Virus record (IMG/VR): IMGVR_UViG_3300026187_000042
Location: 1 to 35,668 of that record
Source of the DNA: a virus
Taxonomy: Duplodnaviria; Caudoviricetes
Length of the DNA: 35,668 bases
Strand: one strand, 5' to 3'
Part shown: positions 1-35,668 of the stretch, one piece after another
Layout of the letters: each line of letters opens with the position of its first letter
Numbering within the stretch: the first letter of the stretch is position 1
Position numbers and translations under genes: made by a program
Notes under the pieces: model-generated
The model's database searches: none
The model's input: the letters and a program-made list of their open reading frames with translations, nothing else
Told to the model about the DNA's origin: nothing

Positions 1-140
1 AAAAAAAAAAAAAATTTTGAACAATTATTGAAAGCACATATTTCAGGTGATAAAAAAAAGGTTGAAGAACTTGAAAAAAAATTAAAACAAGATGGCGAGT
101 AATTTTAGCGTAATAGAAAACAAATTTTACAACCAAATAA
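1..140. repeat. Terminal direct repeat / circular overlap, left copy
   Basis: 15-140 is identical to 35543-35668. The first 14 bases are pure A and differ from 35529-35542 at 3 positions, probably an end artefact. Confidence 0.95.
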
Positions 141-2461
141 AGAATGGAATTGCGTTTTCAAATAATTTAGGGCAATATACAACGAGCATAAAAAGTAATT
201 CAGGGGATGTTATCAAATTAGTTCAAACAATTGAATTGGCTGTTGCTGTCAACTTGGATGAAACTGAATTAATGACAATAAGTACATTACCATTTGATGC
301 AACAAATGCTGAAATAAAAGCTGATTCGACTGATTGGTTTGCGGAAGGCATTTATCCAACTGCATCAATAAGGGTTGAACGTGGAGGTTTATTTTATAAT
401 ATAACCGTTTTAAATATTACGGGAGTTGGAAACACAAAATTAGTCATTTCAGATGCAAATATGACAGGAATGATCGCTGCATTAGGGTTGACAGATTTAG
501 GGGAATATTCTGATTTAGTTTTTAAATTAACAACCGTTCCAACACATTGTATTTTTAAATACAAATTAAATCCATTAACATTGGCTGTTCCAAATTATGA
601 TAGCCCATTAGATGATAATGAGCAATCGTATTATGCAAAAGCAATACCAACAAGCCCAACATTTGAAACAATGGCATTTTTAGGTGGTGAAAATGGTTCA
701 AGTATGTCAGAAGTTGAAATTGCATATTTAACAACTTATGAGAATTACAGACATAGGCTTCAAATAAATCATATTTTCAAAAACCCTTATTACGTTTCCG
801 GCGAAATAATTAATATTCAAGATGCAATAAAACCGGCATTACTTTCAGGTTCAAACACATTAAGGTATGACAATTATTTTAGGATTGGCGTATCTGCTTA
901 TCAAAATTCTATATTTTATAATAATGGTTTAACGGGTGATTGTGGTTATTTTAACGAAAATTACAACGGGAATATTAATAATTATACAATTGAAAATGTT
1001 TTAATAACAAACGCAAGTGCAACGGGAAAGTTGGAGGCAACAGAAACAAACACATTAACATTTGATGTTGTTACAACGGGAACGTGGAATGCCGGTGTTG
1101 GGGGTGTTTTATCACACTCAAAATTGCCTCCATTAGCTGAATACCAAAACAAAACTGAAGCGTTTAACAGCATTTGGTTGTTTGATAACATTTTTAATAC
1201 TGAAAGCGGTGCGGCTGCTAGTAGTGGTATTTATACCAACTTTGAATTTTCAATAACAGCATCAGATACAATTTCAGTTAGTGTTGACATTGATTTTTCT
1301 GCATCTCAACAATTAAAAATTAGTGACACATCATATTATGCGTTATGGTTTGGGATAGCAAATGAAGATTTAACAGATGCTGATTTGATTGACAGGGTTA
1401 ATTTAATCATTGATGTTGATAGGTATTCAAAAAATACAGATGTTGCAAACCTTATTACAAATTACACACCTGAATTTCGTGAAGAATTTAGAGGGTTAAG
1501 TGGTGTAAGTTATACTAATTTTTCAGGTGGTGATGGTGATTTATGGAGTGCTATTTATGCGCTTGTAACAGATACCACAAAGCAAACAACGATAACAAAA
1601 GCGAGGTTTAAAATAGTGGCTGATAATGGAACGGAATCTTTTTTAATCGGAAAGCCTACTAACTTTCCTTTAGGGCTTCCAACTGTTATAACTGACGGTA
1701 GTTATATTTATCAAATAATAAATGTTAACACAGTAAATTCATTAAATGTTCCTGAAGATGTTCCTGTGAAAACATTACAAGCAATAGAAAATGTTCCGGC
1801 ATCATTGCCAAGCACAACACAAGATGTTGTTTTTAAAGTAGGGTTTCAAGTGCCTTGGAGAGATTGGATAGAAAATTTAAATGTTCCTTTACTTGCTTTT
1901 TACGATCCATCAGAACCTAACGATAATCGAAACGAAAAGACTTCTAATTATTCAAATGTTTCAAGTTATGATATTTACGGTGTTTTAGAATTAACCGTAT
2001 TGAATAATGTAGAAGATACGCCAACTATTTACGAATTATATTCAGATTCAAGTACAATAATTGATTTTGATTCATCGGGGTGGGTTGGTTTTTCAGGTGA
2101 TGCTAAACTATACGATGAAGATGGCATTGAAGTTAGTCAATTAGAAGATGGAAGGGATTTGATTATTAAAATTGAATGTACTCACGGTTCAGGTTTATTA
2201 TCCCTTCAATCATTGGGTGCGTTTGTTTGGATGGAAATAAATGGCGCAACAGCATCACCAAGTTATTTATCTTCATCATTTGACTACACTTCTGATGAAA
2301 ACAGATTGCAACCATCTGACGAATTAGGTACGGGGAATACACAATACGTTGAAATATTAAGCGAAACAAACAAAGTAACATTAATTTGCAAAACAAATTC
2401 TGATAATTTAGTTGCCGGATTAGATTATTACATCAGAGGGCGTTTATGGCATAAAATATAA
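92..2461 (+). CDS. Large putative virion (tail/baseplate region) protein
   Basis: 789-aa ORF rich in T/S/N/I and acidic residues; follows the tape measure and 602-aa tail genes across the circular junction. Confidence 0.6.
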   Translation: MASNFSVIENKFYNQIKNGIAFSNNLGQYTTSIKSNSGDVIKLVQTIELAVAVNLDETELMTISTLPFDATNAEIKADSTDWFAEGIYPTASIRVERGGLFYNITVLNITGVGNTKLVISDANMTGMIAALGLTDLGEYSDLVFKLTTVPTHCIFKYKLNPLTLAVPNYDSPLDDNEQSYYAKAIPTSPTFETMAFLGGENGSSMSEVEIAYLTTYENYRHRLQINHIFKNPYYVSGEIINIQDAIKPALLSGSNTLRYDNYFRIGVSAYQNSIFYNNGLTGDCGYFNENYNGNINNYTIENVLITNASATGKLEATETNTLTFDVVTTGTWNAGVGGVLSHSKLPPLAEYQNKTEAFNSIWLFDNIFNTESGAAASSGIYTNFEFSITASDTISVSVDIDFSASQQLKISDTSYYALWFGIANEDLTDADLIDRVNLIIDVDRYSKNTDVANLITNYTPEFREEFRGLSGVSYTNFSGGDGDLWSAIYALVTDTTKQTTITKARFKIVADNGTESFLIGKPTNFPLGLPTVITDGSYIYQIINVNTVNSLNVPEDVPVKTLQAIENVPASLPSTTQDVVFKVGFQVPWRDWIENLNVPLLAFYDPSEPNDNRNEKTSNYSNVSSYDIYGVLELTVLNNVEDTPTIYELYSDSSTIIDFDSSGWVGFSGDAKLYDEDGIEVSQLEDGRDLIIKIECTHGSGLLSLQSLGAFVWMEINGATASPSYLSSSFDYTSDENRLQPSDELGTGNTQYVEILSETNKVTLICKTNSDNLVAGLDYYIRGRLWHKI

Positions 2462-2464
2462 GAT

Positions 2465-3391
2465 ATGGCAATTAAATTAACACCAAGCTCATCAAATACA
2501 AATACAATTGAATATTTGCACACAGAAGAATTGTTTTCTTGCCGTAAAAGTTATGAAATACCACCTGATGTTTGTAGCGCATTATCTTGCAGACAACCAA
2601 TACCTGTTTTTGCTGATTTGGTAAACACCACATCAACACGAAATAATGATTTTACCAAATGGAGATATTCAGCCCCAATAGGTGGCTCAGTTGAATGTAT
2701 TTTAACAAGATGTGATACTAACACAACCTATACAATAAACGACACAACTTATGGTGCATTTATGGATGTTGGAGATTTAGCAACATATCCTAATGATTGG
2801 TCATTTGCAATTGAGTGGTTTCGTGTTGCAAATTTAATAGGCTTTGGAACTTATTCATTAGAATTTACTATAAAAGACACTTCATTAAATACGGTTTTTT
2901 CAGAATCAACACCATGTTATTTTTTACAACCGTATAGTTGTGATGATGCCAATGGAACTGTAAGATTTGAAGTTTTACAAAATGGTTATAATCAAAGCGG
3001 TTTTGATTGGAGTGGTTTTACAGGTTTGTTTAAATTATTTACAAAGCAACAAATTAGATTAAACGGTTATGTTAAAAAAACAGCCATTTCAGAAACTGAT
3101 TATGTTACAACGTCACAATATAAATCTGACCACGTTCAAACAAGGGTTTACCACGAATATGAAGTAACGTTAAGGAGTGTTGACGAATATGTTTATTTAA
3201 AATTGGTAAAAGGTTTGTTGTTAGAAATGCCGGTGATGTTAACCGTTTATGACACATCAAATGACACAAATTATGATAATTTTGAAGTTAAATTTTTAGA
3301 TGTTGAAATTGAAGAATTTGACAAAAACCGACAATCAAATGTGAAAATAAAATTTGATGATTATTCAAGAAATAACATAAAAAGATACTAA
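2465..3391 (+). CDS. Putative virion/tail protein
   Basis: 308-aa ORF tightly coupled in the late operon; no recognisable catalytic motif. Confidence 0.5.
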   Translation: MAIKLTPSSSNTNTIEYLHTEELFSCRKSYEIPPDVCSALSCRQPIPVFADLVNTTSTRNNDFTKWRYSAPIGGSVECILTRCDTNTTYTINDTTYGAFMDVGDLATYPNDWSFAIEWFRVANLIGFGTYSLEFTIKDTSLNTVFSESTPCYFLQPYSCDDANGTVRFEVLQNGYNQSGFDWSGFTGLFKLFTKQQIRLNGYVKKTAISETDYVTTSQYKSDHVQTRVYHEYEVTLRSVDEYVYLKLVKGLLLEMPVMLTVYDTSNDTNYDNFEVKFLDVEIEEFDKNRQSNVKIKFDDYSRNNIKRY

Positions 3392-3717
3392 TGACAAAAA
3401 CAGGTGAACAATATTTTTTGGTTTCAGGTTCTTTAATTGAACAATATTCAGGTGCATCAGATTTTAATACAGATTCATTGGAATTACCAAATAAGATTTT
3501 TATAATATACGCAGAAAGCACTCACACAAGTGGATCACCAAAAATTGACGTTGAATTTTCTAATGATGGAACAAATTGGTTTGTTTATAAAAGCCAACAA
3601 TCTGTAAGTTTACCACAAACAATTTGGGATGATGAATTTTTGCCAAGATATATGCGTTTAAAATATGCAGCAAATTCATCCAATGGAAATGTAACTTTTA
3701 CAATAGTTAATTTATGA
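3391..3717 (+). CDS. Small putative structural protein
   Basis: 108 aa; TAATG overlap with the upstream gene; beta-strand-like composition. Confidence 0.5.
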   Translation: MTKTGEQYFLVSGSLIEQYSGASDFNTDSLELPNKIFIIYAESTHTSGSPKIDVEFSNDGTNWFVYKSQQSVSLPQTIWDDEFLPRYMRLKYAANSSNGNVTFTIVNL

Positions 3718-4472
3718 TAGATTTAAGAGAAGATACGACCAAAGAATATCGTTATGAAGTTGCAATGGGTAACGTTTACGGTAGTTCAACGTGGAATAAA
3801 TTTGGTTATAATGCAGATATAAATGGGGTTGCTGAAGTTGTCGCATCATTTGGTGGAACGTTTAATATAATGACAACAGCTGACACATTAAATGTTGTTT
3901 CAACATCAAATAATGATAGGTCAGGAGGGCAAGCAGCAAGAACAATTCTATTGATTGGTATTGATTCAAACGGAGATTACCAAGAAGAAACCGTAACAAT
4001 GAATGGTCAAACACCTGTAACCACATCAAACACTTGGTTAGGTATCAATAGGGCGTATGTTGCATCAGTTGGAAATTCTAACTATAATCAAGGTGATATA
4101 ACAATTTCTGACACATCAGCTGTTTTTGGAACACAAGCGCAAATTCCATCAATGAAAGCTATAACGCAACAATCAATTTTTCACGTTGAATCAGGGTATA
4201 AATTTTTATCAGATTGGTTAGAAATAAATTCCTCAAGACAAGGTGCTACACCATTTATTCAGGTTTTTGGTTATGTTTACGACAGATCAACGAATGTAAG
4301 GCAACAAATATTCACAACAAGCACAGGTGATGGTCAGTCAAGCGAATTGCAATTAACACCATCACAACCTTTTATTATTGGTGAAGATAGTGTATTATAT
4401 TTTGAAGCAACATCAGACCATACAAATACATTTGTTTCATTAAGATTTTCAGGAATTCTAAGAAAGATATAA
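3714..4472 (+). CDS. Phage protein, probably virion-associated
   Basis: 252 aa; ATGA overlap; T/S/G-rich, with a KFGYN motif near the N-terminus. Confidence 0.5.
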   Translation: MIDLREDTTKEYRYEVAMGNVYGSSTWNKFGYNADINGVAEVVASFGGTFNIMTTADTLNVVSTSNNDRSGGQAARTILLIGIDSNGDYQEETVTMNGQTPVTTSNTWLGINRAYVASVGNSNYNQGDITISDTSAVFGTQAQIPSMKAITQQSIFHVESGYKFLSDWLEINSSRQGATPFIQVFGYVYDRSTNVRQQIFTTSTGDGQSSELQLTPSQPFIIGEDSVLYFEATSDHTNTFVSLRFSGILRKI

Positions 4473-4473
4473 A

Positions 4474-4887
4474 ATGAGAGATATAGAATACATAGTTATT
4501 CATTGTGCGGCAACAAAGCCATCAATGGATGTTCCAATTGAGCGAGTTAGAAAATGGCATTTAGATAGAGGTTGGTCAGACATTGGTTACCATTACTATA
4601 TTACAAGGGATGGAAAAATTCATAATGGTAGAGATTTAAGTATTGTTGGTGCGCACGTTAGCGGATATAATAAAAACAGTATTGGAATATGTTATGAAGG
4701 CGGCATAAATGAAAAAGGTGATCCGGAAGATAACAGAACAGATGAACAAAAGAAATCATTGCTTAAAGTTGTTAAGATTTTAAAATTTGTTTTTAAAAAT
4801 GCAGTTGTTCAAGGTCACAGAGATTTTCCAAATGTTAAAAAAGCGTGTCCATCATTTGATGCTAAAAACGAATACAAAAATATATGA
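4474..4887 (+). CDS. Endolysin, N-acetylmuramoyl-L-alanine amidase (Amidase_2, T7 lysozyme-like)
   Basis: Motifs IVIHCAAT, IGYHYYI, GAHV, SIGICYEGG, GHRD, KACPSF (Zn ligands H/H/C). Confidence 0.95.
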   Translation: MRDIEYIVIHCAATKPSMDVPIERVRKWHLDRGWSDIGYHYYITRDGKIHNGRDLSIVGAHVSGYNKNSIGICYEGGINEKGDPEDNRTDEQKKSLLKVVKILKFVFKNAVVQGHRDFPNVKKACPSFDAKNEYKNI

Positions 4888-5354
4888 GAGAAAAAGGAAG
4901 ATTAAAAAAGTGGCTAAAAGATAACGGAAAAAACGCATTAGGGAACGTTTTAGACACAATTGGCGAAAATACGTCTATACCTATTGCAAGTAAATTAATT
5001 GAGGGCATAGGCGAATCTTTGATGGATGATAAAAAAATAAGTGAGGAAGATAAAAAAGAGATTGCTAAAATGATAGAATTTGAATTAAGGGAATTAGAAA
5101 TTCTTGAATCAAATTTAACTGAACGCCACAAAAATGATATGCATAGTGATTCGTGGATGTCAAAAAATGTTAGACCAATAATACTATTGTTCAGTTGGTT
5201 TTTATTAGTCCTTATGATGGTTTTTGCTTGGTTTGACAAATCTTTACCATCAAATTATGTTTCGCTATTCGAAACACTTTCTTTGGCTGTTACAGGTGGT
5301 TATTTCGCATTAAGGACTGTTGAAAAAAGAAATTCAAAAAAATATAATAAATAA
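4884..5354 (+). CDS. Putative holin (GTA 3TM-holin-like)
   Basis: Next to the endolysin; DSWMSKNVRP motif, two hydrophobic segments and a basic C-terminal tail. Confidence 0.7.
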   Translation: MREKGRLKKWLKDNGKNALGNVLDTIGENTSIPIASKLIEGIGESLMDDKKISEEDKKEIAKMIEFELRELEILESNLTERHKNDMHSDSWMSKNVRPIILLFSWFLLVLMMVFAWFDKSLPSNYVSLFETLSLAVTGGYFALRTVEKRNSKKYNK

Positions 5355-5365
5355 CAATATTTGAT

Positions 5366-5373
5366 TATATTTG
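5366..5373 (+). promoter_or_regulatory. Bacteroidota-type -7 promoter element (TATATTTG)
   Basis: Matches TAnnTTTG; no + strand ORF lies between it and the terminator at 5434-5463. Confidence 0.55.
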
Positions 5374-5378
5374 AAATT

Positions 5379-5463
5379 AAATAAATTTATTCTGATTGTT
5401 TTTTAGTAAATTTATTTCTCTTTATCATAGCTTCCTCCATCCTTAATTGGGTGGAGGTTTTTT
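5379..5463 (+). ncRNA. Candidate small RNA antisense to early-gene start sites
   Basis: Promoter, 11-bp hairpin (5379-5389/5407-5417), linker containing TCATAGCTT (reverse complement of AAGCTATGA), then an intrinsic terminator. Confidence 0.45.
5434..5463 (+). terminator. Rho-independent terminator ending the late/lysis operon
   Basis: CCTCCATCC-ttaatt-GGGTGGAGG stem followed by T6. Confidence 0.85.
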
Positions 5464-5513
5464 GTTTATCTCAGGGCATAAATAAAAAAAAATAATTTTT
5501 TTTCATTTTTTTA

Positions 5514-7933: not shown

Positions 7934-8500
7934 TTGACATTAAACAAACGAAAATGCAAAGAATGTGGTGTGATATTCCAAAAAATCAGACCATTGCAAA
8001 GCGTTTGTTCTCCAAAATGTGCTTTTTTACAATCAAAAAAACAACGTGAAAAGCAGAGTAAAAAAGATTGGCGGAAAAGAAAAAAAGAAACAAAGGAGAA
8101 GTTAAAAACAAAAAAAGATTATGAAAAGGAATTGCAACAAGTGTTCAATGAGTTTATCAGGTTGCGAGATCAAGACCAAAATTGTATAAGTTGTGGAAGG
8201 CAAGTATACGGAAAATGTGATGCCGGTCATTTTTATCCTGTTGGAAGTTACAAGAACCTAAGATTTGATGAAGATAATGTTCACAAGCAATGCGTTCATT
8301 GCAACCAACATAAACACGGCAATTTAAATGAATATGCGTTAAATTTGCCACAAAGAATTGGTTTATGTAATTTTAAAAAGCTAAATGAAAACCGATTAAA
8401 AGAAAGGCACTATTCAATTCCTGAATTGATTGAGTTAAAAAAAACCTATAAAGAGAAAATAAAAAAACTAAAACAAAATGACAGAGGAATATTTGATTAA
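7934..8500 (+). CDS. ninG: NinG/Rap-family recombination endonuclease
   Basis: CKEC..CSPKC, FNEFIRLRD, CISCG, DAGHF, LRFDEDNVHKQCVHCNQHKHGN. Confidence 0.9.
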   Translation: MTLNKRKCKECGVIFQKIRPLQSVCSPKCAFLQSKKQREKQSKKDWRKRKKETKEKLKTKKDYEKELQQVFNEFIRLRDQDQNCISCGRQVYGKCDAGHFYPVGSYKNLRFDEDNVHKQCVHCNQHKHGNLNEYALNLPQRIGLCNFKKLNENRLKERHYSIPELIELKKTYKEKIKKLKQNDRGIFD

Positions 8501-9486: not shown

Positions 9487-11279
9487 ACAAATTTATTGAT
9501 TGGGAGAAATTAGAATTTAAAAAAACATCGGGAAGGGAAAAATTAAGATGCCCAAATTGTGATGAAATTAGAACAGATAAAAAAGATAAGGCATTAGTCA
9601 TATATCACAATGATGGTGTTGGAAAATGTTTTTATTGCGAATCATTAACATTTCGTGATTCAGGTGAAACAGATTATTCACAAAAGCAATATAACATTCC
9701 ATCACAAAGTTGGAAAAATTACACACAGCTTTCAGATAAATTAATTAAATGGGTTGAGGAAAGCCGAAAGATTAGCCAAAGTGCATTGATTGATTTAGGG
9801 GTTACTGAAGAAGTATTTTACCAACCAAAACACAAGAAAGAAATTAACAATATTGTGTTTAATTATTTTGAGGGTGAAAAATTAGTGAACAAGAAATACC
9901 GGTCAGCTGATAAATCATTTACGCAAACGCAAGGTGGTAAACCAATATTCTATAACATAAATTCCGTTATTGGTCAGGATGAAGTTTATATTGTTGAAGG
10001 TGAATTTGATGTTTTGGCTTTGCGTTCACACGGGATCAAAAACGTAATAAGCGTTCCAAATGGCGCAAATGATAATGACGAATATTGGAAGAATTCGGAA
10101 AAGTATTTAAAGGATATTCAAAAATTTATAATTGCAGTTGATAATGATGAAAAAGGTAAAGCATTAAAAGAAAAAATTGCACAGCGTTTGGGAAGATGGC
10201 GTTGTGATTATATCAATTGGTCAGAAAAAGATGCCAATGGTTCACTAATTGCCAAAAAGATTGATTTTGATTTATCAAATAGAAAAAAATTTCCTGTAAG
10301 TGGTACGTTCACATCACTTGATTTAAAAGATGGAATATTTGATTTATACAATAACGGTTTACCGGAAACAATTTATCCAAAAAACAGTTGTTTTGGCAAT
10401 TTTAAGAAGATATTTTCAATTATGCGTGGTCAATTAACCGTTGTCACAGGAATACCATCACACGGTAAATCTTCATTTGCTGAATGGCTTTCTTTAAACT
10501 TGATTAATGATTATGATTCAAAACTTTCAATGTTTTCACCTGAACATTCACCAATGCCATTGCATCAAACAACTTTAATTCAAAAAGCCGTTGGTAAGCC
10601 ATTTTGGAAAGAAATAGATGGCAGAGCAAGAATAACACCAAACGACATTGAAAGATATATAAATTGGTCAAAGGAAAAGATTTATATTACATCACCTGAT
10701 AAAAATGATGCGCCAACGTGGGATTGGATATTTGAAAAATTTAAAGAACAGATGTTTGCTTTTGGGATTGATATTTTTATTATTGATGCGTTTAATAAGG
10801 TACTATTACCAAGTGGAAACAAAAAAGATAGTATTGATGAGGTTTTAACCCGTTTAACAGCTTTTGCACAGCAGAACAATGTAAGCGTTTGTTTAGTTGC
10901 ACATCCAACCAAAATGCAAAAGGATGAAAAAGGGAATACAAGAATCCCAAATTTATATGATGTAAGCGGCTCGGCAGATTTTAGAAATCAAACGCATAAT
11001 GGTTATGCAATCCACAGATTTTTTGAATCAGAAAACCAAGAACCATTCACAAGATTTGTAAACCTAAAAACTAAATTTCAATTTCAAGGTGAAATAGGTG
11101 GCAACATAGATTTTTTATATGATCTTCCAACCGGTAGATTTTACGCAAAAGGTCAACCAATACCAACATTTGATATGACATTATCAGATGAAGTTTTTGA
11201 ACAATCAGAAATTAAATCACTAAGCCCAAATGAAGATTTTGATTGGATAAATGAACCTTCCAACGAGATAAATTTTTAA
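9483..11279 (+). CDS. Primase-helicase (T7 gp4/Twinkle-like)
   Basis: Zn finger CPNC...CFYC, TOPRIM VEGEFD and DND, Walker A GIPSHGKS, IIDAFN, LVAHPTK, YDVSGSADF. Confidence 0.93.
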   Translation: MNKFIDWEKLEFKKTSGREKLRCPNCDEIRTDKKDKALVIYHNDGVGKCFYCESLTFRDSGETDYSQKQYNIPSQSWKNYTQLSDKLIKWVEESRKISQSALIDLGVTEEVFYQPKHKKEINNIVFNYFEGEKLVNKKYRSADKSFTQTQGGKPIFYNINSVIGQDEVYIVEGEFDVLALRSHGIKNVISVPNGANDNDEYWKNSEKYLKDIQKFIIAVDNDEKGKALKEKIAQRLGRWRCDYINWSEKDANGSLIAKKIDFDLSNRKKFPVSGTFTSLDLKDGIFDLYNNGLPETIYPKNSCFGNFKKIFSIMRGQLTVVTGIPSHGKSSFAEWLSLNLINDYDSKLSMFSPEHSPMPLHQTTLIQKAVGKPFWKEIDGRARITPNDIERYINWSKEKIYITSPDKNDAPTWDWIFEKFKEQMFAFGIDIFIIDAFNKVLLPSGNKKDSIDEVLTRLTAFAQQNNVSVCLVAHPTKMQKDEKGNTRIPNLYDVSGSADFRNQTHNGYAIHRFFESENQEPFTRFVNLKTKFQFQGEIGGNIDFLYDLPTGRFYAKGQPIPTFDMTLSDEVFEQSEIKSLSPNEDFDWINEPSNEINF

Positions 11280-15728: not shown

Positions 15729-16955
15729 ATGAAAACCGAAATGCTTAAGATTACCGAGATTCAAAAGAATCCCGATAACCCACGATTGATTAAAGACAGT
15801 AAATTTGAAAAATTGGTTCAATCAATTAAAGAATTCCCTGAAATGCTTAATTTAAGACCAATTGTTGTGAACAATGAAATGATTGTTTTAGGTGGCAATA
15901 TGCGATTATCAGCTTGTAAAGAAGCCGGATTAAAAAAAGTGCCAATTATCAAAGCAGACGATTTAACGGAAAAACAACAAAAAGAATTTATTATTAAAGA
16001 TAATGTTTCATTCGGTGAATGGGATTGGGATATGTTGGCAAATGAATGGGAAGTAACAGAATTAGGTGATTGGGGATTAGAAGGGTTTCCTTTTGATGCA
16101 GAAATAGAACTTGAAGCGGAAGAAGATGATTTTGAAGTGACGGAGGGTGGAATTAAAACCAACATTGTATTAGGCGATTTAATAGAGATAGGAAAACATA
16201 GATTGCTTTGTGGAGACTCTACGGATAGTGATCAGGTGGCTAAGTTGATGAATGGGAAGAAGGCTGATATGGCTTTTACTTCTCCTCCATATAATGCAAA
16301 TACAAAATCAGGTCAAGGAGATATATTTAACAGAAAGAAGAGTGTTAAATTATACTCTGAGGGTTATTCAGATAATTTAGCTAGTTCAGATTATGTAGAT
16401 TTTGCTACAAGTGTATTAGACAACTGCTTTTTGTTTACTGATGGTTTCATATTTTGGAATGTAAGTTATAATGCTAATAGCAGATTTGAATACATTCAGC
16501 AGATTCAAAATCATTTACAATTCTTGATAGAGCAAATTTGTTGGAAGAAATCATCTACTATTCCATTTAAGGGATCATTGATGCGTGATTGGGAACCTAT
16601 ATATGTATTCTCAACAAATGGAAATATGTTAGGTTTAGATTCTGTAAGCAGTAATCATTGGGAAGTAAACAATACTAATTCTCAGCAAGAAAATCACAAG
16701 GCTTGTTTCCCTGTTGAATTGCCTTTCAAAGCCATTAACTTAAAAGAGGAATTCAAACTTATGTTTGAGCCATTCTTAGGCTCAGGCTCAACAATGATAG
16801 CAGCACATCAACTTAAACGTAAATGCTACGGTATGGAATTAGATCCTAAGTATTGTCAAGTAATAATAGATAGAATGATAAACCTAGAGCCACTTATAGA
16901 TGTTAAGATAAATGGAGAGCCGTATTATAATCACGACATAAACAAACAGGCGTAA
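15729..16955 (+). CDS. ParB-N domain fused to a beta-class N4-C/N6-A DNA methyltransferase
   Basis: NPDNPR...GGNMRL (ParB/Srx), HRLLCGDS, catalytic TSPPY, HKACFP, SAM-binding EPFLGSGST, GMELDPKY. Confidence 0.9.
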   Translation: MKTEMLKITEIQKNPDNPRLIKDSKFEKLVQSIKEFPEMLNLRPIVVNNEMIVLGGNMRLSACKEAGLKKVPIIKADDLTEKQQKEFIIKDNVSFGEWDWDMLANEWEVTELGDWGLEGFPFDAEIELEAEEDDFEVTEGGIKTNIVLGDLIEIGKHRLLCGDSTDSDQVAKLMNGKKADMAFTSPPYNANTKSGQGDIFNRKKSVKLYSEGYSDNLASSDYVDFATSVLDNCFLFTDGFIFWNVSYNANSRFEYIQQIQNHLQFLIEQICWKKSSTIPFKGSLMRDWEPIYVFSTNGNMLGLDSVSSNHWEVNNTNSQQENHKACFPVELPFKAINLKEEFKLMFEPFLGSGSTMIAAHQLKRKCYGMELDPKYCQVIIDRMINLEPLIDVKINGEPYYNHDINKQA

Positions 16956-21674: not shown

Positions 21675-21917
21675 ATGAAACTACAAGCGCAAGAAGTAAA
21701 GCAAGGAATGGAAGTAAAATTTGGATGGAATCAATGGCTTACTGTTGAATCAATAGAAATAGACCACCAAAAGAACGGCAAAGAGTTAAGAATTTTTAAG
21801 GGTAGTTCTAAACAAGAAAAACCAACAAGAAGAGGAGCAAGAAAATATCCAACAATAGTTCCTAATAAAAATGATTCTTATGTTTGTAAATCGACTACAA
21901 AATTAGATGTGAGATGA
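21675..21917 (+). CDS. Hypothetical basic protein
   Basis: 80 aa; conserved TAAAAAAAAGCAAAATG leader. Confidence 0.7.
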   Translation: MKLQAQEVKQGMEVKFGWNQWLTVESIEIDHQKNGKELRIFKGSSKQEKPTRRGARKYPTIVPNKNDSYVCKSTTKLDVR

Positions 21918-21944
21918 AAAAGAAGCTAACTAAAATTCACCATC

Positions 21945-21973
21945 GCCTCGAACCATAATCGGTTCGGGGTTTT
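21945..21973 (+). terminator. Intergenic hairpin (weak terminator or processing site)
   Basis: GCCTCGAACC-ataatc-GGTTCGGGGT followed by TTT. Confidence 0.6.
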
Positions 21974-22013
21974 GGTAGTAACAAACATTAAAAAAACAAA
22001 AAAAACAGAAGCT

Positions 22014-22229
22014 ATGAATATGAGTTATTGCAGATTCCGAAACACAAGTTTAGATTTACAAGATTGTATTGATGCGATCAACAATGGTGAAATAAATGAT
22101 TTATCAAGAGATGAGCAACAAGCGTTTGTTAACTTAATAATGCAATGCAAGGAAGTTGCAGAAAATTTTGAAGATTATGATGATTACGAATTAGAAGATT
22201 TTATCAAAGAACAACAAGAAGAAATTTAA
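22014..22229 (+). CDS. Small acidic protein (MNMSYCRFRNT...)
   Basis: Start moved to the AAGCTATG at 22014; about 19 D/E versus 5 K/R in 71 aa. Confidence 0.7.
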   Translation: MNMSYCRFRNTSLDLQDCIDAINNGEINDLSRDEQQAFVNLIMQCKEVAENFEDYDDYELEDFIKEQQEEI

Positions 22230-22252
22230 TTAAACAACTAAAAAAACAAGTT

Positions 22253-22579
22253 ATGAAAAATTCAGTAAGAGAAGAATTATTAGATTACGCAAAAGAACAA
22301 ATTTTAGATTTAGGTTTAGATTTAAATGATGATGATTTACACCATAAATTGTTCAACGAAGATTACTACATCATTGGGTATTATAACGCATCAGAATGGC
22401 TCAAAAAACATAATATCGGTGAATTTGAATCTGTTAATATGTTGGAAGAACTTCATTCTTGGCATTTTGGGGAAAATACAGAAGTTTACAAAGATGCTGA
22501 AAGAGTTGTCAATATGTTAGTTTACTTTTATGGGTTTGAAATTGTTGAAGAATTAAAAGAACTTTCAGGTGCGGTTTGA
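22253..22579 (+). CDS. Acidic protein, possible Ocr-like DNA mimic
   Basis: 108 aa; about 24 D/E versus 9 K/R; DDDLHH...YYIIGYY. Confidence 0.5.
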   Translation: MKNSVREELLDYAKEQILDLGLDLNDDDLHHKLFNEDYYIIGYYNASEWLKKHNIGEFESVNMLEELHSWHFGENTEVYKDAERVVNMLVYFYGFEIVEELKELSGAV

Positions 22580-23000
22580 AACAAATAAAGATTTACAAAA
22601 TGAATTGGATGCCATCACATTATATTGTGAGGTGTTCAATTCATCTTTTGAAAAGTTAGGTGAAAATGACATTGATTACAGGGTGACAAAACCAAACAGA
22701 ATTCAACACATTGAGGTGAAAGGTAGAAACCGGAAAATTGAAAACGCATTTCCATTACCAATTGCTGCAAGAAAGGTTGTCAAGTTGGTTGACAAAAAAA
22801 CAGAACCAATTGTTATTTGGAATTGTTTTGATGGGTTAATTATATGCGATCTAAGCAGCGTAAAATCATCCGGATATATTAGTGGGCGTAAACCAAGAGA
22901 AGGTTCTGCAAATGACGTAGAATATATGTTATACTTTGAAAAGCAAGATAATTTTTATTGCATCAAAAAGTATTCAAAAAAAATATTTAAACTTTTTTAA
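22569..23000 (+). CDS. PD-(D/E)xK nuclease-fold protein
   Basis: E...DIDY...HIEVKGR motif. Confidence 0.65.
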   Translation: MRFETNKDLQNELDAITLYCEVFNSSFEKLGENDIDYRVTKPNRIQHIEVKGRNRKIENAFPLPIAARKVVKLVDKKTEPIVIWNCFDGLIICDLSSVKSSGYISGRKPREGSANDVEYMLYFEKQDNFYCIKKYSKKIFKLF

Positions 23001-23007
23001 AAAAAAG

Positions 23008-23040
23008 CGATTTAGTAGTATATTTTATATATATTTACAT
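23008..23040 (+). promoter_or_regulatory. Variant early promoter (TATATTTA)
   Basis: GTATATTTTATATATATTTAC resembles 21630-21650; lies before ATG 23054. Confidence 0.5.
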
Positions 23041-23053
23041 AAAATTAAAAGCT

Positions 23054-23629
23054 ATGAAAAAGTATCAAACATACAGCGATTACAAAAACCAAGCGTTCAC
23101 ACCTGAAAAAATGCAATCTGATGCGGTTCTTTTTGTAAAGAAATTAATGCCAACATTTTGCGATTCTTGGATAAATCAAGTTGAAGAACAAAGTGATGAT
23201 TTAAAAGGTATTAAATTTCAATTCAATGTTAAGTCTGAAACAATTCACGTTATCAAATTAGGTGGGTTTTTAGGTGATTGGGATTTGTTTTTAAACAAGA
23301 AAAGAATCAACAAAAGTGATTTACAAAATTACCTTGAAAAAAAATATATGACAGGGTTGGAAATTTTCTGCAAATATGTAATGGGTTACAACTTTCATAT
23401 AAATATGTTAGAATACAAAGGTGATTATGCTAAGGCAAGTGAAAGAAATAAAAACATTGAGAGCATTTTTGCCGGTTTAAATGATCAAGATAAAGCAAAA
23501 GCGATTGATTTTATGAATAGCGTTTTTGGAGAAAAATTGACAAAAACAGTGTTTTCAAAAAATGGTGAAACAAGAGATCAATTATTAAAAGAATTAAATG
23601 AATTAAATAAAATATACAGCTATGAATAA
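23054..23629 (+). CDS. Hypothetical protein
   Basis: 191-aa ORF. Confidence 0.7.
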   Translation: MKKYQTYSDYKNQAFTPEKMQSDAVLFVKKLMPTFCDSWINQVEEQSDDLKGIKFQFNVKSETIHVIKLGGFLGDWDLFLNKKRINKSDLQNYLEKKYMTGLEIFCKYVMGYNFHINMLEYKGDYAKASERNKNIESIFAGLNDQDKAKAIDFMNSVFGEKLTKTVFSKNGETRDQLLKELNELNKIYSYE

Positions 23630-23804
23630 GGAAGAACAACTTCAACAAATGATTGACCAATGGAATGAAAAATTTGATTTAATGGTCAGAGAAAGAAACT
23701 ATTGGCGTGACAGATGTTTAAAAGCCACAAAGGAAACAAATGATATGCAAGATTCAATTGAACGGTTAAAAAATCAAGTTTACAACCTATCAAAAAGGGG
23801 TTAA
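23622..23804 (+). CDS. Small coiled-coil protein
   Basis: 60 aa, heptad-like; overlaps the upstream stop. Confidence 0.65.
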   Translation: MNKEEQLQQMIDQWNEKFDLMVRERNYWRDRCLKATKETNDMQDSIERLKNQVYNLSKRG

Positions 23805-29256: not shown

Positions 29257-29267
29257 ATTAATTTAAG

Positions 29268-29735: not shown

Positions 29736-30204
29736 TATTTACGAGATGCCACAATGGAATTGGCAACAGATACAAAACACAGGTGATTTAAAATATTTAT
29801 TTAAAAAATGTGAGGGGAAAATTTTAAAAGAACATTTTGAACTTTGGAATGATTTAGAAGAACAACATATCGCTGAATTTGGAATACCAAGTGAGGTGAA
29901 AATAAGAATAAGAAAACAAATAAAATTAATTCAATTAAATGCTAAATTTATTAAAACAAAAAATAGGGTTTTATTGAATTATATTAACATCATAGAAAAC
30001 GAATTGAACCAAAAGAAAAATGAACATTTTGGTTTTTATGATATTAAAGAAGTATTAGAAAAAAATAAAGGGTTTAGAATTATTTGCTCACCAAATAAAG
30101 GCAATGATCCAAACCAAATAACCGTTGTTGAATGGGGTTATGCCCTAAAAAATTTAATTAAAAATGGCGAAGCGAATAGAGGGCAACGAGATAATCAACG
30201 ATAG
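29704..30204 (+). CDS. Putative tail assembly chaperone
   Basis: 166 aa directly before the tape measure gene; start uncertain. Confidence 0.45.
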   Translation: MSENTLEVWDNIYEMPQWNWQQIQNTGDLKYLFKKCEGKILKEHFELWNDLEEQHIAEFGIPSEVKIRIRKQIKLIQLNAKFIKTKNRVLLNYINIIENELNQKKNEHFGFYDIKEVLEKNKGFRIICSPNKGNDPNQITVVEWGYALKNLIKNGEANRGQRDNQR

Positions 30205-33200
30205 TTGGGCAGCAAAAGCGGTCAAACAAGGTGAAGATTTATTGAAGGTTCTTGAAAAATTAGAAGAACAAGGAAAGCAAACAGCTGACCAATTAAGTAA
30301 AGTTGCCAAAACGCAAAGTGGTGCAACTGCAAAATCAATTCGTGACATCACACAGGCGGTTTCAAAATCAAATGCAGAAAGAAAAAAATCTATTGCAATT
30401 GATAATGAAAAAAAATCTTTGGAAGAAAAATTAACAAGATTACGTTCAAATAGAATTCAACAAAACGAAGAATTAAAGGTTTTAATTTCAGAGCAAAGAA
30501 AGGTTAATAAACAATTAGCGAGAGAAACAACAGGTTTAGCGGGTGCGTATGAAAAGGAATCAAAAACATTAATTAAATTAAGAAAGCAATTAAAAGATTT
30601 AATAATAACAGAGGGTGAAGGAAGTAAAAAAACGCAACAATTAAAAAGGAGGGTTACTGAATTAGACCAAAAACTAAAATCTGCTGATGCAGCAGCCGGA
30701 CAATTCCAACGGAATGTTGGGAATTATCCAAAAGCAATGGGTGGTGCTATTGCAAGTTTAAAGAAATTTGCGGGTGCATTGGGAATTGTTGGCGGTGTTC
30801 AATTGTTAAATAGGGGTTTAAGAAATACTTTTGACATCGTTAAAAATTTCGATCAAGCACAAGCAAATTTGGCTTCTGTTTTAGGGGTTACTCGTGATGA
30901 AATGAGCGGGTTAACTGAAATGGCAAAAGAATTAGGTGCAACAACAAAATTTACAGCGGCAGAGGTTTCAGAACTACAATTAGAATTTGCCAAATTAGGT
31001 TTTACACAAAAAGAAATTGAAGGTGTTACCGAAGCGACATTACAATTAGCAGCAGCAGCAGGAACGGATTTAGCAAACGCAGCATCAATTGTTGGCTCAA
31101 CTTTAAGAGGTTTTGGATTGGATGTTACAGAAACCCAAAGATTGGTTGATGTAATGGCTAAATCATTTAGCAGTTCATCATTGGATATAGATAAATTTAG
31201 TTCTGCAATGTCTAATGTTGCACCCGCAGCATCAGCAATAGGGTTGACCGTTGAAGAAACTACTGCTTTATTAGGTTCATTAACAGATGCGGGTATTGAT
31301 GCGAGTAGTGCGGGAACAGGTTTAAGAAATATGTTCCTACTTGCAAAGGAACAAGGCATAACATTTGATGAAGCATTAGATCAAATTGCTAATTCGTCTG
31401 ATCAATTAGGTACTTCTTTTGATTTATTCAAGAAAAAAGGCTCAACTTTAGGGGTTATTTTAGCAAATAGTAGGGATAAAACAAATGAGTTAACGCAAAG
31501 TTTGAAAGATTCCTCGGGAGCTGCTGAAGAAATGGCAGACAAACAATTAGACACATTGCAAGGTTCATTGGAATTATTGAATAGTGCGTGGGAAGGTTAC
31601 ATTTTAGGAGCAGATGGTGCGGGAGGTGTAAGTGATAAATTAAAAAATGTAGTTCAATTTTTGGCAGAAAATTTAGAAATAATTTTAGACACAATATATC
31701 AAGTTGGAAAAGCGTTTATTGTATATAAGGCTGCTGTAAAAGGTGCTAGTGTCGCTCAATCTTTAATGAACAAAAGAACTATTGTAGCAATAAGGAATAC
31801 TAAAGCATACGCATTTGTTCAAAATTTAGCAACTAAGGCTATGAAAGTTTTCAACATACAGATGAAATTAAATCCTTTCGGTTTAATTCTTTCCGCTTTA
31901 ACTCTTATAGTACCATTGCTTATTGACTTTACGTCCGAGCTTTTTGGTTCAAATGAAGAGGTTAAAAAATTAACTAGATCACAGGAGGCTTTTAATAACG
32001 TGGCTGAAAATACAAAAGGAAAGCTAGAAGATGAGAATGCAGAGTTATTAAAAGTTTTTGAAGCATTAAAAAAGACAAAAGCCGGTACTGACGATAGGCA
32101 AAAAGCATTAGATAATGTAAACTCAAAATACGGAACTACACTAAAGAACCTTTCAGATGAGGCTGAATTTGTTGAGCAGTTAAATGTAGCCTATAAAGAT
32201 TTAGTATCAACACTTGAAACAAGAATAAGAGCAGAAGCAATACAAGAAGAATTAACCCAATTAATAAAAGAAAGAATATCGGCTCAAAAAGCTTTAGCTG
32301 AAGCGCAAAAACAATCTTTAGAGTTTACCCCTACAAATATAGCTGATTTTGATCCAAACAAACAAATTCAAGTAACTGAATTAGAACAGGCATCAATTGA
32401 TAATATGGTTGATGTTGCTCAAAGAGCATTAGATGAAATAAACGCTGCCATAGCTAATTTAGAGAGCGATGTTGGTGATGAACCATTATTTGATGCTTTG
32501 TTTGGTGATGGTGGTGGTACTAGTTCAAGGGGAAAAAAAGAAGATCCTAGATTAGCAGCATTAAAAGAATATCAAAAAGAACGAGCGTTAGACTTGATTA
32601 AGTATGAGAATGAACTAAGACTACAAACAAATGACGAAGAAACCATTGCTTATTTTTTATCACAAAAGAAACTAGAAATAGCAAACGACACATCAAGAAA
32701 AATAAACGAATTAGGTTTATCAGACCACGAAATAGCAATAAAACAAGAAAACGAGCGTTTAAAGTTGGTTAACGCTAATTCGATGTCTAGAGTAAATTTC
32801 GAGTTAAAAGCCGAAGGGGATTTAGAGGCATTGAGAAAAGCGGGAAGAAAAGCGCAAAAAGATGCTGCTATTGAAAATACTAAGTTAACCGCAAAACAGA
32901 TTGATGAAATAAAAAAATTAACACAAGTCACCGTAGATTCATTAAAGAAAATAGCTGAGATAAGAGAAAAGGATTTAGACAAACAAATAGAAGCATCGGA
33001 AGAACAAATAGCAAAGTCTGAGTCAGAGGTTGAAAGGCTTCAAGAAATAGGTACAGCGCAAGCGATTAAATCCGCAGAAGCAGAAAAAAGACGTATAGAT
33101 AAAGAAACTGCTGAAATAGAAGATTTAGAAAAGAAAAAACGAAACCTTTTAATTGTTACAGCGGGATTAGAACGTGTAAATCAATTAATACAACAAGGTA

Positions 33201-33631
33201 ATTCAAACCCGTTTCAAACAACCGGTGGTGAAATTGGTAATTTTATTTCGCAATTAGCATCATTTTATGATGGTACAGAATTAACAGTTGCTGATTCGTT
33301 AGGCAAAACAGGAACAAAAGATGGTCACATTGTTAGGGTTCACGATAATGAACACATTGTAAGCGCAAAAGACAGCGATAGATTACACTCAAACGGTATC
33401 TATAAAACGTCTGACATTGTTGATTCGGCATTAAATTGGAAAAACTTAAACACATCCTCTTTAATAATGAATAAACGCAATAATGATGCTCAATTAATTA
33501 GTGAGATTAAAGAAATGCGCAAAGCGTTTAATTCAATTGATTTTCCTGAACAATATGTTTATTTAGATAGGGATGTTTTTAAAAAACAAAATTCAATTAA
33601 AACAGTAAACTATTCAAATAACAGAATATGA
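30164..33631 (+). CDS. Tail tape measure protein (TP901-family core)
   Basis: 1155 aa, helical; AKELGATTKFTAAEV...LAAAAGTDLANAA...AGIDASSAGTGLRN core; FQRNVGNY. Confidence 0.93.
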   Translation: MAKRIEGNEIINDSWAAKAVKQGEDLLKVLEKLEEQGKQTADQLSKVAKTQSGATAKSIRDITQAVSKSNAERKKSIAIDNEKKSLEEKLTRLRSNRIQQNEELKVLISEQRKVNKQLARETTGLAGAYEKESKTLIKLRKQLKDLIITEGEGSKKTQQLKRRVTELDQKLKSADAAAGQFQRNVGNYPKAMGGAIASLKKFAGALGIVGGVQLLNRGLRNTFDIVKNFDQAQANLASVLGVTRDEMSGLTEMAKELGATTKFTAAEVSELQLEFAKLGFTQKEIEGVTEATLQLAAAAGTDLANAASIVGSTLRGFGLDVTETQRLVDVMAKSFSSSSLDIDKFSSAMSNVAPAASAIGLTVEETTALLGSLTDAGIDASSAGTGLRNMFLLAKEQGITFDEALDQIANSSDQLGTSFDLFKKKGSTLGVILANSRDKTNELTQSLKDSSGAAEEMADKQLDTLQGSLELLNSAWEGYILGADGAGGVSDKLKNVVQFLAENLEIILDTIYQVGKAFIVYKAAVKGASVAQSLMNKRTIVAIRNTKAYAFVQNLATKAMKVFNIQMKLNPFGLILSALTLIVPLLIDFTSELFGSNEEVKKLTRSQEAFNNVAENTKGKLEDENAELLKVFEALKKTKAGTDDRQKALDNVNSKYGTTLKNLSDEAEFVEQLNVAYKDLVSTLETRIRAEAIQEELTQLIKERISAQKALAEAQKQSLEFTPTNIADFDPNKQIQVTELEQASIDNMVDVAQRALDEINAAIANLESDVGDEPLFDALFGDGGGTSSRGKKEDPRLAALKEYQKERALDLIKYENELRLQTNDEETIAYFLSQKKLEIANDTSRKINELGLSDHEIAIKQENERLKLVNANSMSRVNFELKAEGDLEALRKAGRKAQKDAAIENTKLTAKQIDEIKKLTQVTVDSLKKIAEIREKDLDKQIEASEEQIAKSESEVERLQEIGTAQAIKSAEAEKRRIDKETAEIEDLEKKKRNLLIVTAGLERVNQLIQQGNSNPFQTTGGEIGNFISQLASFYDGTELTVADSLGKTGTKDGHIVRVHDNEHIVSAKDSDRLHSNGIYKTSDIVDSALNWKNLNTSSLIMNKRNNDAQLISEIKEMRKAFNSIDFPEQYVYLDRDVFKKQNSIKTVNYSNNRI

Positions 33632-35436
33632 TAACGGTTATCAATATGACATTAAATGGTATTCCAATTTCAACGGTCAGGGGATTGGATGGTTTAGAAT
33701 TAAATGCTGTTTACGATATAAGCCCACGAGCATCAATAAATTTAGATTCAGTTGTTTTTTGCAATAGTGATAAATCAAAAAATAGTGATATTTTAAGGGC
33801 TGCTCATGATGCGTTACCAACAGAAGGTGCATTATTTGAATTTGAAGTTACTGATTTTGTAAATTCGTATCCGTTTAAATTTATCTGTGATTACAATAGG
33901 TATAAAATTTTGTCACCAAGTGAAACAGAAGTTGGTTTATTTTTAGAAGATTCAGATAATTCATTAATTCAATATAGGGGTGCTGATATTAATATGGCTT
34001 TTTTAGAAGATGCCGGTTATTTAAATTCAACACATTATGTTAATTTCCCTTATATCGTTAAAAACAGAAAAACAAATTTAGAAAAGATACAATTATTATC
34101 AATCACATTCACGACAACAAAAACACTTTTTGATGAAGTTTTTAAATTAATTGGCATTGCAACCGATATATCAACAGTACTTGGTTCAGCTTTAGGTCTG
34201 ATTAATTTAGCGCAAACATTGTTTGCTTTATCACTTACTGTTGTACAATTGATACAATTAATAAAAGAAGCGAGGGAAACATTTGTTCCCCCAATCAGGT
34301 ATCATTCAGCAATTTCATTAAAAAATTATTTAACACAAGCGTTTAATTATTTAGGGTATTCAGTTGATTTTGGAACGTGGGCTGAAAACCCAATATTAAT
34401 ACCATCAAAATCAGATGAAATTGGATTAACAACGCCTGAAACAACATTGGAACAAAGCGGTATATTAAAACCAAATAATTTTGGGTATAATTTATCAGAA
34501 GCGATTGAATTAGCTTTAAGGTTGTGCAACGGTGAAATAATGATAAAAGAATCAACCGTTCATTTAAGACCAAAAAGTGATCCATTTTGGATTTTAGATG
34601 CGGGTTATATTATGCCCGACACATTAATTGAACAAAGCGTTTTAGAAAATAATGGTGAAAGGCGTTTAAACCGTGAGGATGTTTATGCCGGTAAATCATT
34701 TTCATATGAAACTGATGATTCTGACAGGTGGACAATACAAGATGCGGCAGATGGCGCAAATGGGAACAGAAGGCACACAGTAATTGTTGAACCAATCACA
34801 ACAGTGAACACAAAAAGAGTTAATTTAAACGGGTTTAAGGAAATTAAAATACCATATTGCTTAGTTTCAAGGAAATATTTAGTTGATGAAATAATTGATA
34901 AAATTATTCCTGATCTTGAAATTGGGTTGTTTGATTTGCGTGAAACAGTTAAAGAAACATTTGAATTATACTCAGACGAATTAACAGAAACATTTCCAAT
35001 ACTTGAAACGTTAGGTTCTTATGTTTTATCTAGGGATGGCGCATTAAGAGTTGAAAATCATTTTTTTACAAAGCCTAAAATTGGCATTTTAGAGGGTGGA
35101 AGTTTTGGAAGGTATTTAATACCTGAAGATTTCAATGATAAAATAGGTGCAAAAGCCATTTACAACAAATATTACAGTTATGATTCGTTGGTTGAGGGTG
35201 TTAGAAATCCATTAGACACAAATGATACAAATGGAAAAGAAGTTTTTGAAAATGTAGAATTTCAATTTAATATAAAAGATTTTTCACTAATTTTGAATAA
35301 CGCATATTTTACAACTGAATCGGGTAAATTAGGAAGATATACAGCATTAAATTGGAAAGTTTTAAGTGATAAAGTCACAGCCAATTATTGGGTTCAAAAA
35401 AATTGGTTGATAAATTCTGAAGAAAAAGAGGTATGA
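33628..35436 (+). CDS. Putative tail/virion protein
   Basis: 602 aa; ATGA overlap with the tape measure gene; internal hydrophobic helical stretch. Confidence 0.6.
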   Translation: MITVINMTLNGIPISTVRGLDGLELNAVYDISPRASINLDSVVFCNSDKSKNSDILRAAHDALPTEGALFEFEVTDFVNSYPFKFICDYNRYKILSPSETEVGLFLEDSDNSLIQYRGADINMAFLEDAGYLNSTHYVNFPYIVKNRKTNLEKIQLLSITFTTTKTLFDEVFKLIGIATDISTVLGSALGLINLAQTLFALSLTVVQLIQLIKEARETFVPPIRYHSAISLKNYLTQAFNYLGYSVDFGTWAENPILIPSKSDEIGLTTPETTLEQSGILKPNNFGYNLSEAIELALRLCNGEIMIKESTVHLRPKSDPFWILDAGYIMPDTLIEQSVLENNGERRLNREDVYAGKSFSYETDDSDRWTIQDAADGANGNRRHTVIVEPITTVNTKRVNLNGFKEIKIPYCLVSRKYLVDEIIDKIIPDLEIGLFDLRETVKETFELYSDELTETFPILETLGSYVLSRDGALRVENHFFTKPKIGILEGGSFGRYLIPEDFNDKIGAKAIYNKYYSYDSLVEGVRNPLDTNDTNGKEVFENVEFQFNIKDFSLILNNAYFTTESGKLGRYTALNWKVLSDKVTANYWVQKNWLINSEEKEV

Positions 35437-35630
35437 TAGATAGATTATTGGAAATAAAAAATGAACTAATGGAAATGCAAAAAAATGCGTTGTCGACAAT
35501 ATTTAAAAATGTTAACGATTTACCACAAGAAAAAAAAGAAACTTTTGAACAATTATTGAAAGCACATATTTCAGGTGATAAAAAAAAGGTTGAAGAACTT
35601 GAAAAAAAATTAAAACAAGATGGCGAGTAA
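35433..35630 (+). CDS. Small helical hypothetical protein
   Basis: 65 aa; overlaps both neighbours (the next gene restarts at 35620 = 92). Confidence 0.65.
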   Translation: MIDRLLEIKNELMEMQKNALSTIFKNVNDLPQEKKETFEQLLKAHISGDKKKVEELEKKLKQDGE

Positions 35631-35668
35631 TTTTAGCGTAATAGAAAACAAATTTTACAACCAAATAA
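35529..35668. repeat. Terminal direct repeat / circular overlap, right copy
   Basis: Matches 1-140 (exact over the last 126 bp). Confidence 0.95.

Follow-up and report, generated by a model that had tools for sequence, protein, structure and literature searches.

Why should a phage genome lack, on both strands, a single non-palindromic tetranucleotide that is expected there about a hundred times? The question is raised by IMG/VR record IMGVR_UViG_3300026187_000042, a tailed-phage genome (Duplodnaviria; Caudoviricetes) of 35,668 nt with a siphovirus-type gene set, whose whole length (1..35668, hereafter the window) contains neither CCAG nor CTGG. A preliminary description had reported this absence as apparent and total, and had attributed it to a host defence that recognises an asymmetric CCAG-core site. 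The absence is confirmed here, and our analysis points to a different agent. With a probability that we put at about 0.82, the purge is the footprint of a nuclease encoded by the phage itself, a PD-(D/E)XK protein of 143 amino acids (22569..23000, + strand) predicted to cut or nick duplex DNA at CCAG/CTGG.

An exact count returned zero for both CCAG and CTGG, which are the sole tetramers missing from the window. A maximal-order Markov model predicts 107 sites over both strands (z about -12), and synonymous-codon shuffling that preserves proteins and codon usage (45 open reading frames (ORFs), 92% of the window) averaged 94.1 sites over 300 shuffles, the lowest count being 75. All six codon-frame routes to the word are empty: proline is encoded by CCA in 0 of 68 cases when G follows but in 161 of 220 when another base does, NCT codons never directly precede glycine, and codons ending in C are absent before TGG (0/134) and likewise before CAG. 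The avoidance of cca gaa for Pro-Glu and of gct ggt for Ala-Gly described earlier is thus borne out. The suggestion that gca serves as a substitute before glycine did not hold, as only two such cases exist; GCA-Gly is rare because GCAGG is also avoided (2 found, 25 expected). CCGG, which had been called oddly common, is indeed enriched in coding DNA relative to the codon shuffle (47 versus 16.3), though only mildly relative to the Markov model (100 versus 76).

Neighboring words occur at or above expectation, and the trimer CCA is barely depleted (809 versus 880 expected). Avoidance of CCWGG, the Dcm-type site, was rejected as the cause, in agreement with the preliminary description, because CCTG stands exactly at expectation (127/127) and every CCAGN is absent. 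Degenerate versions of the word fail as well: CTAG retains 12 sites, which excludes CYAG, and neither CCGG nor CCTG is depleted, which excludes CCRG and CCDG.

Sites present in relatives correspond in the window mostly to one-base variants (CCTG 24, TTGG 22, CCAA 13, CCGG 9, and CAGG 9 locus-site pairs), and CCAG was removed mostly through silent changes. At 10293..10296 (+), for instance, a conserved Pro-Val of the primase reads CCT GT in the window, where 12 related loci have CCA GT. Six relatives that are 93–97% identical to the window, 37.5 kb in total and with 211 synonymous one-step opportunities, contain 0 sites where about 14.4 new ones are expected; two substitutions found in close relatives would create a site in the context of the window but do not in the relative's own. 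Control words in this test came out close to their expected counts, and CATG showed the same pattern as CCAG. The purge is therefore real and maintained by ongoing selection. Further avoided words include CATG (5 sites), GGCC (1), CGCG (1), and GACCC, GACGC, GGATCC, and GATATC (0 each); these losses, together with that of GCAGG, look like ordinary host-enzyme avoidance. We also note that the purged words include CCCGG, GAAGAC, CTGCAG, and GGCACC, that GCAGG is asymmetric as well, and that CCGG, spared in the window, is subject to a separate purge in the sister record G252 (0/62).

The nuclease at 22569..23000 belongs to the Pfam family PF24579 (PDDEXK_14), which it matches over residues 2–125 with 30.7 bits against a cut-off of 25. 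Its catalytic motif comprises E12, D34/D36, and E49-x-K51, and a conserved C-terminal loop reads GGRKPR..ND.E; the five catalytic residues show no variation across 94 sequences, and neither do G106, R107, R110, D116, and E118 of the loop. An AlphaFold2 model (predicted local distance difference test score 91) has the core alpha/beta fold and catalytic residues of PD-(D/E)XK enzymes, from which DNA cleavage is predicted. The best fold match is the archaeal Holliday-junction resolvase Hjc (Z 11.2, root-mean-square deviation 2.4, 106 residues aligned, 17% identity), and the top structural matches are Hjc, I-Ssp6803I, NhoI, and DpnI, with Hjc/Hje resolvases at Z 8.3–11.2 and I-Ssp6803I at Z 7.4, within the range that the tool calls common. 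PDB chains searched by sequence profile, Foldseek against PDB at E <= 0.001, and the PADLOC defence models each gave no match to the protein, and a promoter scan near the gene returned chance levels (15 versus 13.8).

The gene is missing from close relatives of the window and occupies different positions in sister genomes. It lies between the scaffold and major capsid genes, within a variable stretch of small ORFs (21675-23804); G252 instead carries the nuclease, together with the ORF upstream of it, next to the holin, and in a large podovirus-like group the gene sits among replication genes. No fewer than 432 stretches of viral contigs carry a member of PF24579, as do 154 records of cultured Pseudomonas phages. 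ORF48 of phage PaP1 is a different, methyltransferase-like gene, and the text of its description (PMC4177049) contains neither CCAGG nor CCWGG.

Possession of this gene and loss of the word go together. Across 99 carrier loci (1.12 Mb, drawn from the best 80 of 432 hits plus other searches), we counted 52 CCAG sites against 3,172 expected; 83 of the 99 had none, 91 had at most one, and 91 of 97 fell below an observed/expected (O/E) ratio of 0.1. Other words fell below this ratio in carriers to varying extents: CATG in 73/99, GATC in 64/99, CCGG in 45/82, and CTAG in 32/99. The carriers form 7–14 protein-sharing clusters, and G252, a second carrier (G477), and a group of 60-kb phages have no common proteins of at least 150 amino acids, yet all are CCAG-free. 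The count was extended to related Bacteroidota phages, as the preliminary description had envisaged, and among 53 control loci (found via terminase, primase, and cultured records) none is CCAG-free, whereas gene carriers are purged; 49 of these controls, searched as whole records, lack the gene. A family-profile search of 53 whole records found it only in the CCAG-free G252, with 0 of 6 IMG/VR records at least 90% complete and 0 of 7 cultured phages carrying it. Three CCAG-free close relatives with no nuclease match are fragments of 13–28%. The nearer relatives that keep CCAG (L005, L009, L010, L012, and L014) have no such gene between scaffold and capsid, nor elsewhere in their partial records, and seven cultured Flavobacteriia phages show O/E values of 0.55–1.03.

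Natural knock-outs tie the purge to the catalytic state of the protein. A profile search of 1.84 billion proteins revealed a branch lacking both the E-x-K motif and the C-terminal loop. Loci for it and for two distant intact branches, one of the searches contributing its best 80 of 167 hits, were classed by motif. When the loci were grouped at 90% identity, an O/E below 0.1 was found in 82 of the 91 intact groups, compared with 0 of 7 dead groups and 0 of 3 bearing K51S/G (Fisher p 5e-9); at 70% identity the figures were 40 of 44 versus 0 of 6 (p 1e-5). In this grouping, groups with fewer than 10 expected sites (2/110) were left out and three truncated genes were set apart; L154 was dropped as a duplicate. 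The dead groups have a median O/E of 0.90 and the K51S/G groups lie at 0.31–0.52, while four groups with an intact motif and a changed loop span 0.01–0.48.

The same relationship holds within the single 60-kb phage group (average amino acid identity 53–74%). Here near-whole genomes with intact alleles have observed/expected counts of 0/207, 0/282, 1/266, 1/269, and 14/259, those with long-dead alleles 427/413, 269/275, and 356/407, and those with decayed alleles 142/344 and 107/244. GATC is still at 0 in the three long-dead genomes, so these phages are not simply free of restriction pressure. Dead and decayed alleles occupy three separate positions among intact ones (support 95, 99, and 82) in a quick tree of 135 columns with SH-aLRT support only. 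On this phylogeny, CCAG appears to return after at least three separate losses of the motif, and the intermediate values in less-changed alleles would fit a gradual return of sites after loss. Dead homologues are kept as full open frames in L248, L252, L254, L256, L258, L259, L263, L267, L269, L290, L291, L293, and L295, and the retention of this clade suggests a second, non-cutting role.

A related footprint is found in cultured Pseudomonas phages. PAK_P1, phiPsa374, and Amme-3 (L380, L381, and L385) carry core PF24579 genes; PAK_P100048 aligns to the family of the window (hhalign probability 91.6), with the same motif and a C-terminal loop of the form GGR..D.E.M. CCAGG/CCTGG is absent from the 20–30 kb analysed of each phage (0/45, 0/43, and 0/30, respectively), and CCAGG is the most depleted 5-mer in all three (tied with GGACC in phiPsa374), with CCAG overall normal. 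The family is missing from the P. aeruginosa phages PAK_P3, PB1, and LUZ24, in which CCAGG stands at 188/160, 104/95, and 90/92; PAK_P3 shares its host strain with PAK_P1. Because the three carriers are related to one another, they count as one or two independent data points, and loss of CCWGG in these phages could alternatively be due to EcoRII-type systems of the host.

No partner is conserved with the gene. An ORF of 108 amino acids that overlaps the nuclease start (22253..22579, +) is common only to the sister phage among 105 neighborhoods and is thus not a general immunity partner; no neighbor is common to the clade of the window and other lineages, and no methyltransferase was found among the nuclease neighbors in the window. 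Of 44 records, three contain PF00145, each of them with a changed allele and with CCAG sites, and one contains PF01555; in the 30 records that combine an intact gene with a CCAG-free locus, a search for these two methyltransferase families found PF00145 in none and PF01555 in one. No linked cognate methyltransferase, as expected of a type II restriction-modification system, emerged from the neighborhoods or from these two families. The window does encode a fusion of ParB with an N6/N4 DNA methyltransferase (15729..16955, +), which we rejected as the cause of the purge because its catalytic half is missing or exchanged in CCAG-free relatives: L004 and L008 match only over the N-terminal 118 residues, and read depth falls at 16089-16922 in 4/4 sequencing runs, with a joint that skips 16081-16954. 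The ParB domain keeps its place upstream of the small terminase gene, and the module behind it is swapped: it is an N6/N4 methyltransferase here, something different in sister genomes (L004 and L008), and a Mom-family gene in L148:4344-5584.

We propose that the phage protein would cut or nick DNA at CCAG/CTGG and that, with no protective methyltransferase found alongside it, self would be defined by the absence of the word. Unshielded cutting of this kind would make the gene tolerable only in a site-free genome, and phage mutations that create a site would be counter-selected. Host DNA, which in low-GC Bacteroidota stretches holds about 4.5 CCAG sites per kb, and co-infecting elements would be cut. 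The benefit would most likely be breakdown of the host chromosome for nucleotides together with shut-off, and possibly the exclusion of rivals. Cleavage itself, its form (nick or double-strand break), its timing, and its benefit are inferred. A search of 401 sampled Bacteroidota genomes, run without a positive control, turned up no homologue of the nuclease; an enzyme that cuts often and has no protective partner would be expected to be missing there.

Several observations weigh against this reading. Nine of the 91 intact groups lie at or above 0.1 O/E. In some of these exceptions CCAG is kept before a single fifth base (11/11 CCAGA in L320, 8/8 CCAGA in L225, 17/17 CCAGG in L148, and 7/7 CCAGG in L323) or mostly so (13/14 CCAGT in G467 and 23/27 CCAGA in G489), and in L299 sites are almost only CCAGC and CCAGT; such one-context exceptions speak for the reading rather than against it, as they would fit specificity variants, although methylation that protects one context would fit as well. 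In L276, 8 of 10 sites fall within one 2-kb stretch. L235, whose gene is cut by the contig start, stands at 1.39 O/E; its first 1.85 kb, beside the truncated gene, has 0 sites where about 26 are expected and the remainder is normal, which makes a mosaic possible. L285 lacks the C-terminal loop, yet has only 5/74. Strong depletion is also seen at two of the control loci, L024 (3/40) and L027 (4/40), both from distant phages whose records, 36% and 44% complete, contain no copy of the gene, and most non-carrier phages are mildly depleted, with a median of about 0.7; this, and the mild depletion of chromosomes, may reflect host-side or codon pressure. The carrier loci are not independent of one another, and their purging of CATG and GATC as well indicates that they are heavily purged phages in general. 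The narrow basis of the tree and the restriction of the methyltransferase search to two families count on the same side, as does the fact that the best structural match is Hjc, a structure-specific resolvase rather than a restriction enzyme. The inferred cutting at CCAG, finally, rests on the genomic footprint.

A general bias of sequence composition, whether mutational or imposed by codon context, is next to negligible as an explanation. Mild depletion is common in AT-rich relatives, but none of the six frames and neither strand contains the word, its neighbors stand at or above expectation, and Bacteroidota chromosomes have O/E values of 0.47–1.23 in 55 stretches (60 fetched, 5 under 9 kb dropped), by which such a bias is refuted. 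Depletion of host chromosomes, which the preliminary description had named as a possible sign of a mutational cause, therefore amounts to mild variation, and its view that selection acts on an asymmetric CCAG site is upheld. Together with the cultured Flavobacteriia phages and the controls, the chromosomes indicate that the purge is not a bias of the phylum as a whole, nor is it shared by Flavobacteriia phages in general. Low-GC chromosomes (L065-L124) often lie at 0.64–0.8, with L109 at 0.47, and several show an excess of CCTG and CCGG.

The agent that the preliminary description had proposed, a host defence, is most likely not responsible. Here a restriction-modification or similar system would read CCAG, and the nuclease would merely mark phages of such hosts. 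CCAG methyltransferases do exist in bacteria, namely the m5C enzyme M.Gel16401IV (PMC4752239, which also lists an unassigned Exiguobacterium CCAG motif), hp0944 of H. pylori A45, confirmed by knock-out (PMC10689673), and that implied by a Sporosarcina P32a motif (PMC5930826); many words typical of ordinary restriction sites are avoided in the genome as well, mild depletion is seen in low-GC stretches of Bacteroidota, and L024 and L027 are depleted with no visible gene. However, a host defence gives no account of the return of CCAG at repeated loss of K51 or E49 inside a GATC-purging phage group, nor of PAK_P1 without and PAK_P3 with CCAGG on the same strain. Cultured Flavobacteriia phages (n=7) retain the word, and the relevant rows of the Blow 2016 supplement name no cognate endonuclease for CCAG methyltransferases. 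Because loss of the word tracks whether the phage nuclease is present and catalytically intact, across unrelated phages and within one group, we regard host defence as unlikely. A phosphorothioate-type defence (Dnd, Ssp, or BREX-4) with a CCAG-like motif is very improbable: single-strand asymmetric motifs such as CCA and CAG are known from Bacteroidota-rich samples (PMC11931770 and the PT-seq preprint), but the motifs given in the available parts of these reports and of PMC12914056 and its preprint (CCA, CAG, CCGG, NCTC, GAAG/GACG, and others) include no 4-bp CCAG consensus, CCA is barely depleted in the window, and this defence predicts no link to the state of a phage gene. BREX-4 of B. salyersiae was rejected as a CCAG modifier, its published motif being NCTC.

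The protein could instead be a junction resolvase, a replication or packaging nickase, or another structure-processing enzyme with a CCAG preference, in which case the purge would avoid collateral self-cutting and the host would not be the target. The resolvases that head the list of fold matches, the position of the gene among replication genes in the podovirus-like group, and the retention of dead copies as full frames all speak for this. A resolvase would presumably gain nothing from a genome without its preferred site, however, and a structure-processing role still needs CCAG-specific cutting. The window already encodes the junction endonuclease NinG/Rap (7934..8500, +, from gene annotation), which weakens a resolvase role for 22569-23000, and the patchy presence and shifting placement of the nuclease gene argue in the same direction. 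We consider such a function quite unlikely.

The genome is circularly complete in assembly, as shown by a terminal repeat of 126 bp (15..140, +, with its second copy at 35543-35668); the circular join creates no CCAG/CTGG site, and gene order across it is that of G252. The gene set includes terminase, portal, tape measure, Erf, primase/helicase, NinG, amidase, holin, and the ParB-methyltransferase, and no integrase was found in the annotation of the window. A 132-amino-acid protein with the DnaA C-terminal helix-turn-helix (PF08299; 8478-8876) is encoded upstream of the replication genes. The closest cultured proteins belong to Cellulophaga, Flavobacterium, Riemerella, and Nonlabens phages, in line with the earlier assignment to Bacteroidota-like phages, and since these best hits are Flavobacteriia phages, a host from this class is likely. 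In searches aimed at the host, the terminase found just a Dyadobacter prophage at 41% and a hit at 26%, the primase matched in 1 of 251 genomes (33%), and the amidase retrieved T7-like phages. Close variants fill 29–30 of 30 bins of the mapped region in four of the 20 listed sequencing runs (labelled estuary, seawater, marine, and sediment), and all read-depth evidence derives from these four.

If nuclease action at CCAG is correct, it would assign a substrate to the uncharacterised phage family PF24579. Some missing phage words would then mark the phage's own weapon rather than a host defence, a point of consequence where hosts are predicted from the sites that a phage avoids, and very small nucleases (about 140 amino acids) with an asymmetric 4-bp target and natural specificity variants would be predicted. 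The CCAGG pattern in Pseudomonas phages makes the idea testable in cultured phage. We think it rather likely that PF24579 as a whole comprises widespread phage offensive restriction enzymes that recognise self without a mark, through a purged word of 4–5 bp whose fifth base drifts (CCAG, CCAG minus one context, and CCAGG). These would include a conserved gene of therapeutic Pakpunavirus phages, and the partnerless bacterial CCAG methyltransferases may be a host shield.

How does this compare with known systems? The literature covered, which lay outside REBASE and most subscription journals and was searched without the accession PF24579 itself, describes neither a phage CCAG endonuclease nor a substrate for the family. 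Avoidance of restriction sites in phages has been surveyed (PMC4687349; Rusinov 2018, PMC6286503); the silent removal of short words reported in the latter is alike and explains the loss of CATG, GGCC, and CGCG here, and that study ascribes it to host enzymes. In the halovirus Hardycor1, depletion of CCAG to 0.11 is likewise attributed to host defences (PMC7911831), whereas the CCAG purge of the window tracks a phage gene. The bacterial CCAG methyltransferases and the lactococcal phage enzyme M.Phi15I, assigned to CC6mAG from single-molecule real-time data (PMC4190342), demonstrate that DNA enzymes do recognise CCAG; they modify rather than cut, and the source excerpts name no cognate endonuclease.

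Within PF24579 ('Phage putative PDDEXK endonuclease'), whose Pfam description states no substrate, the core members include a gene of phiPsa374 and PAK_P100048, the PAK_P1 protein, which has the same motif and loop as the window nuclease. Carriers in both branches lack a CCAG-core word; unlike the Pseudomonas core, the branch of the window, only about 20% identical to it, goes with CCAG rather than CCAGG. Hjc (PDB 2wcw and 1gef) has the fold in common, but its structure specificity would not predict a purged word, and homing endonucleases of the I-Ssp6803I type are argued against by the free-standing gene and the 4-bp footprint. Type II restriction enzymes such as EcoRII and MvaI, which cut CCWGG, resemble the window nuclease in their PD-(D/E)XK core and short target; unlike them, it is small, borne by lytic phages, and not found in the Bacteroidota genomes sampled. 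PacI, an HNH enzyme with no known partner methyltransferase, leaves its host unharmed because the host genome lacks its site, but that site is a rare 8-bp sequence, whereas here an asymmetric 4-bp word is purged genome-wide. T4 EndoII and the chlorovirus enzymes R.CviAII and Nt.CviPII offer precedent for sequence-selective attack on host DNA by virus-encoded nucleases, and chlorovirus nickases read short asymmetric words. T4 and the chloroviruses shield their own DNA chemically, with hydroxymethylcytosine and methylation, respectively; the phage described here apparently protects itself by purging the sequence.

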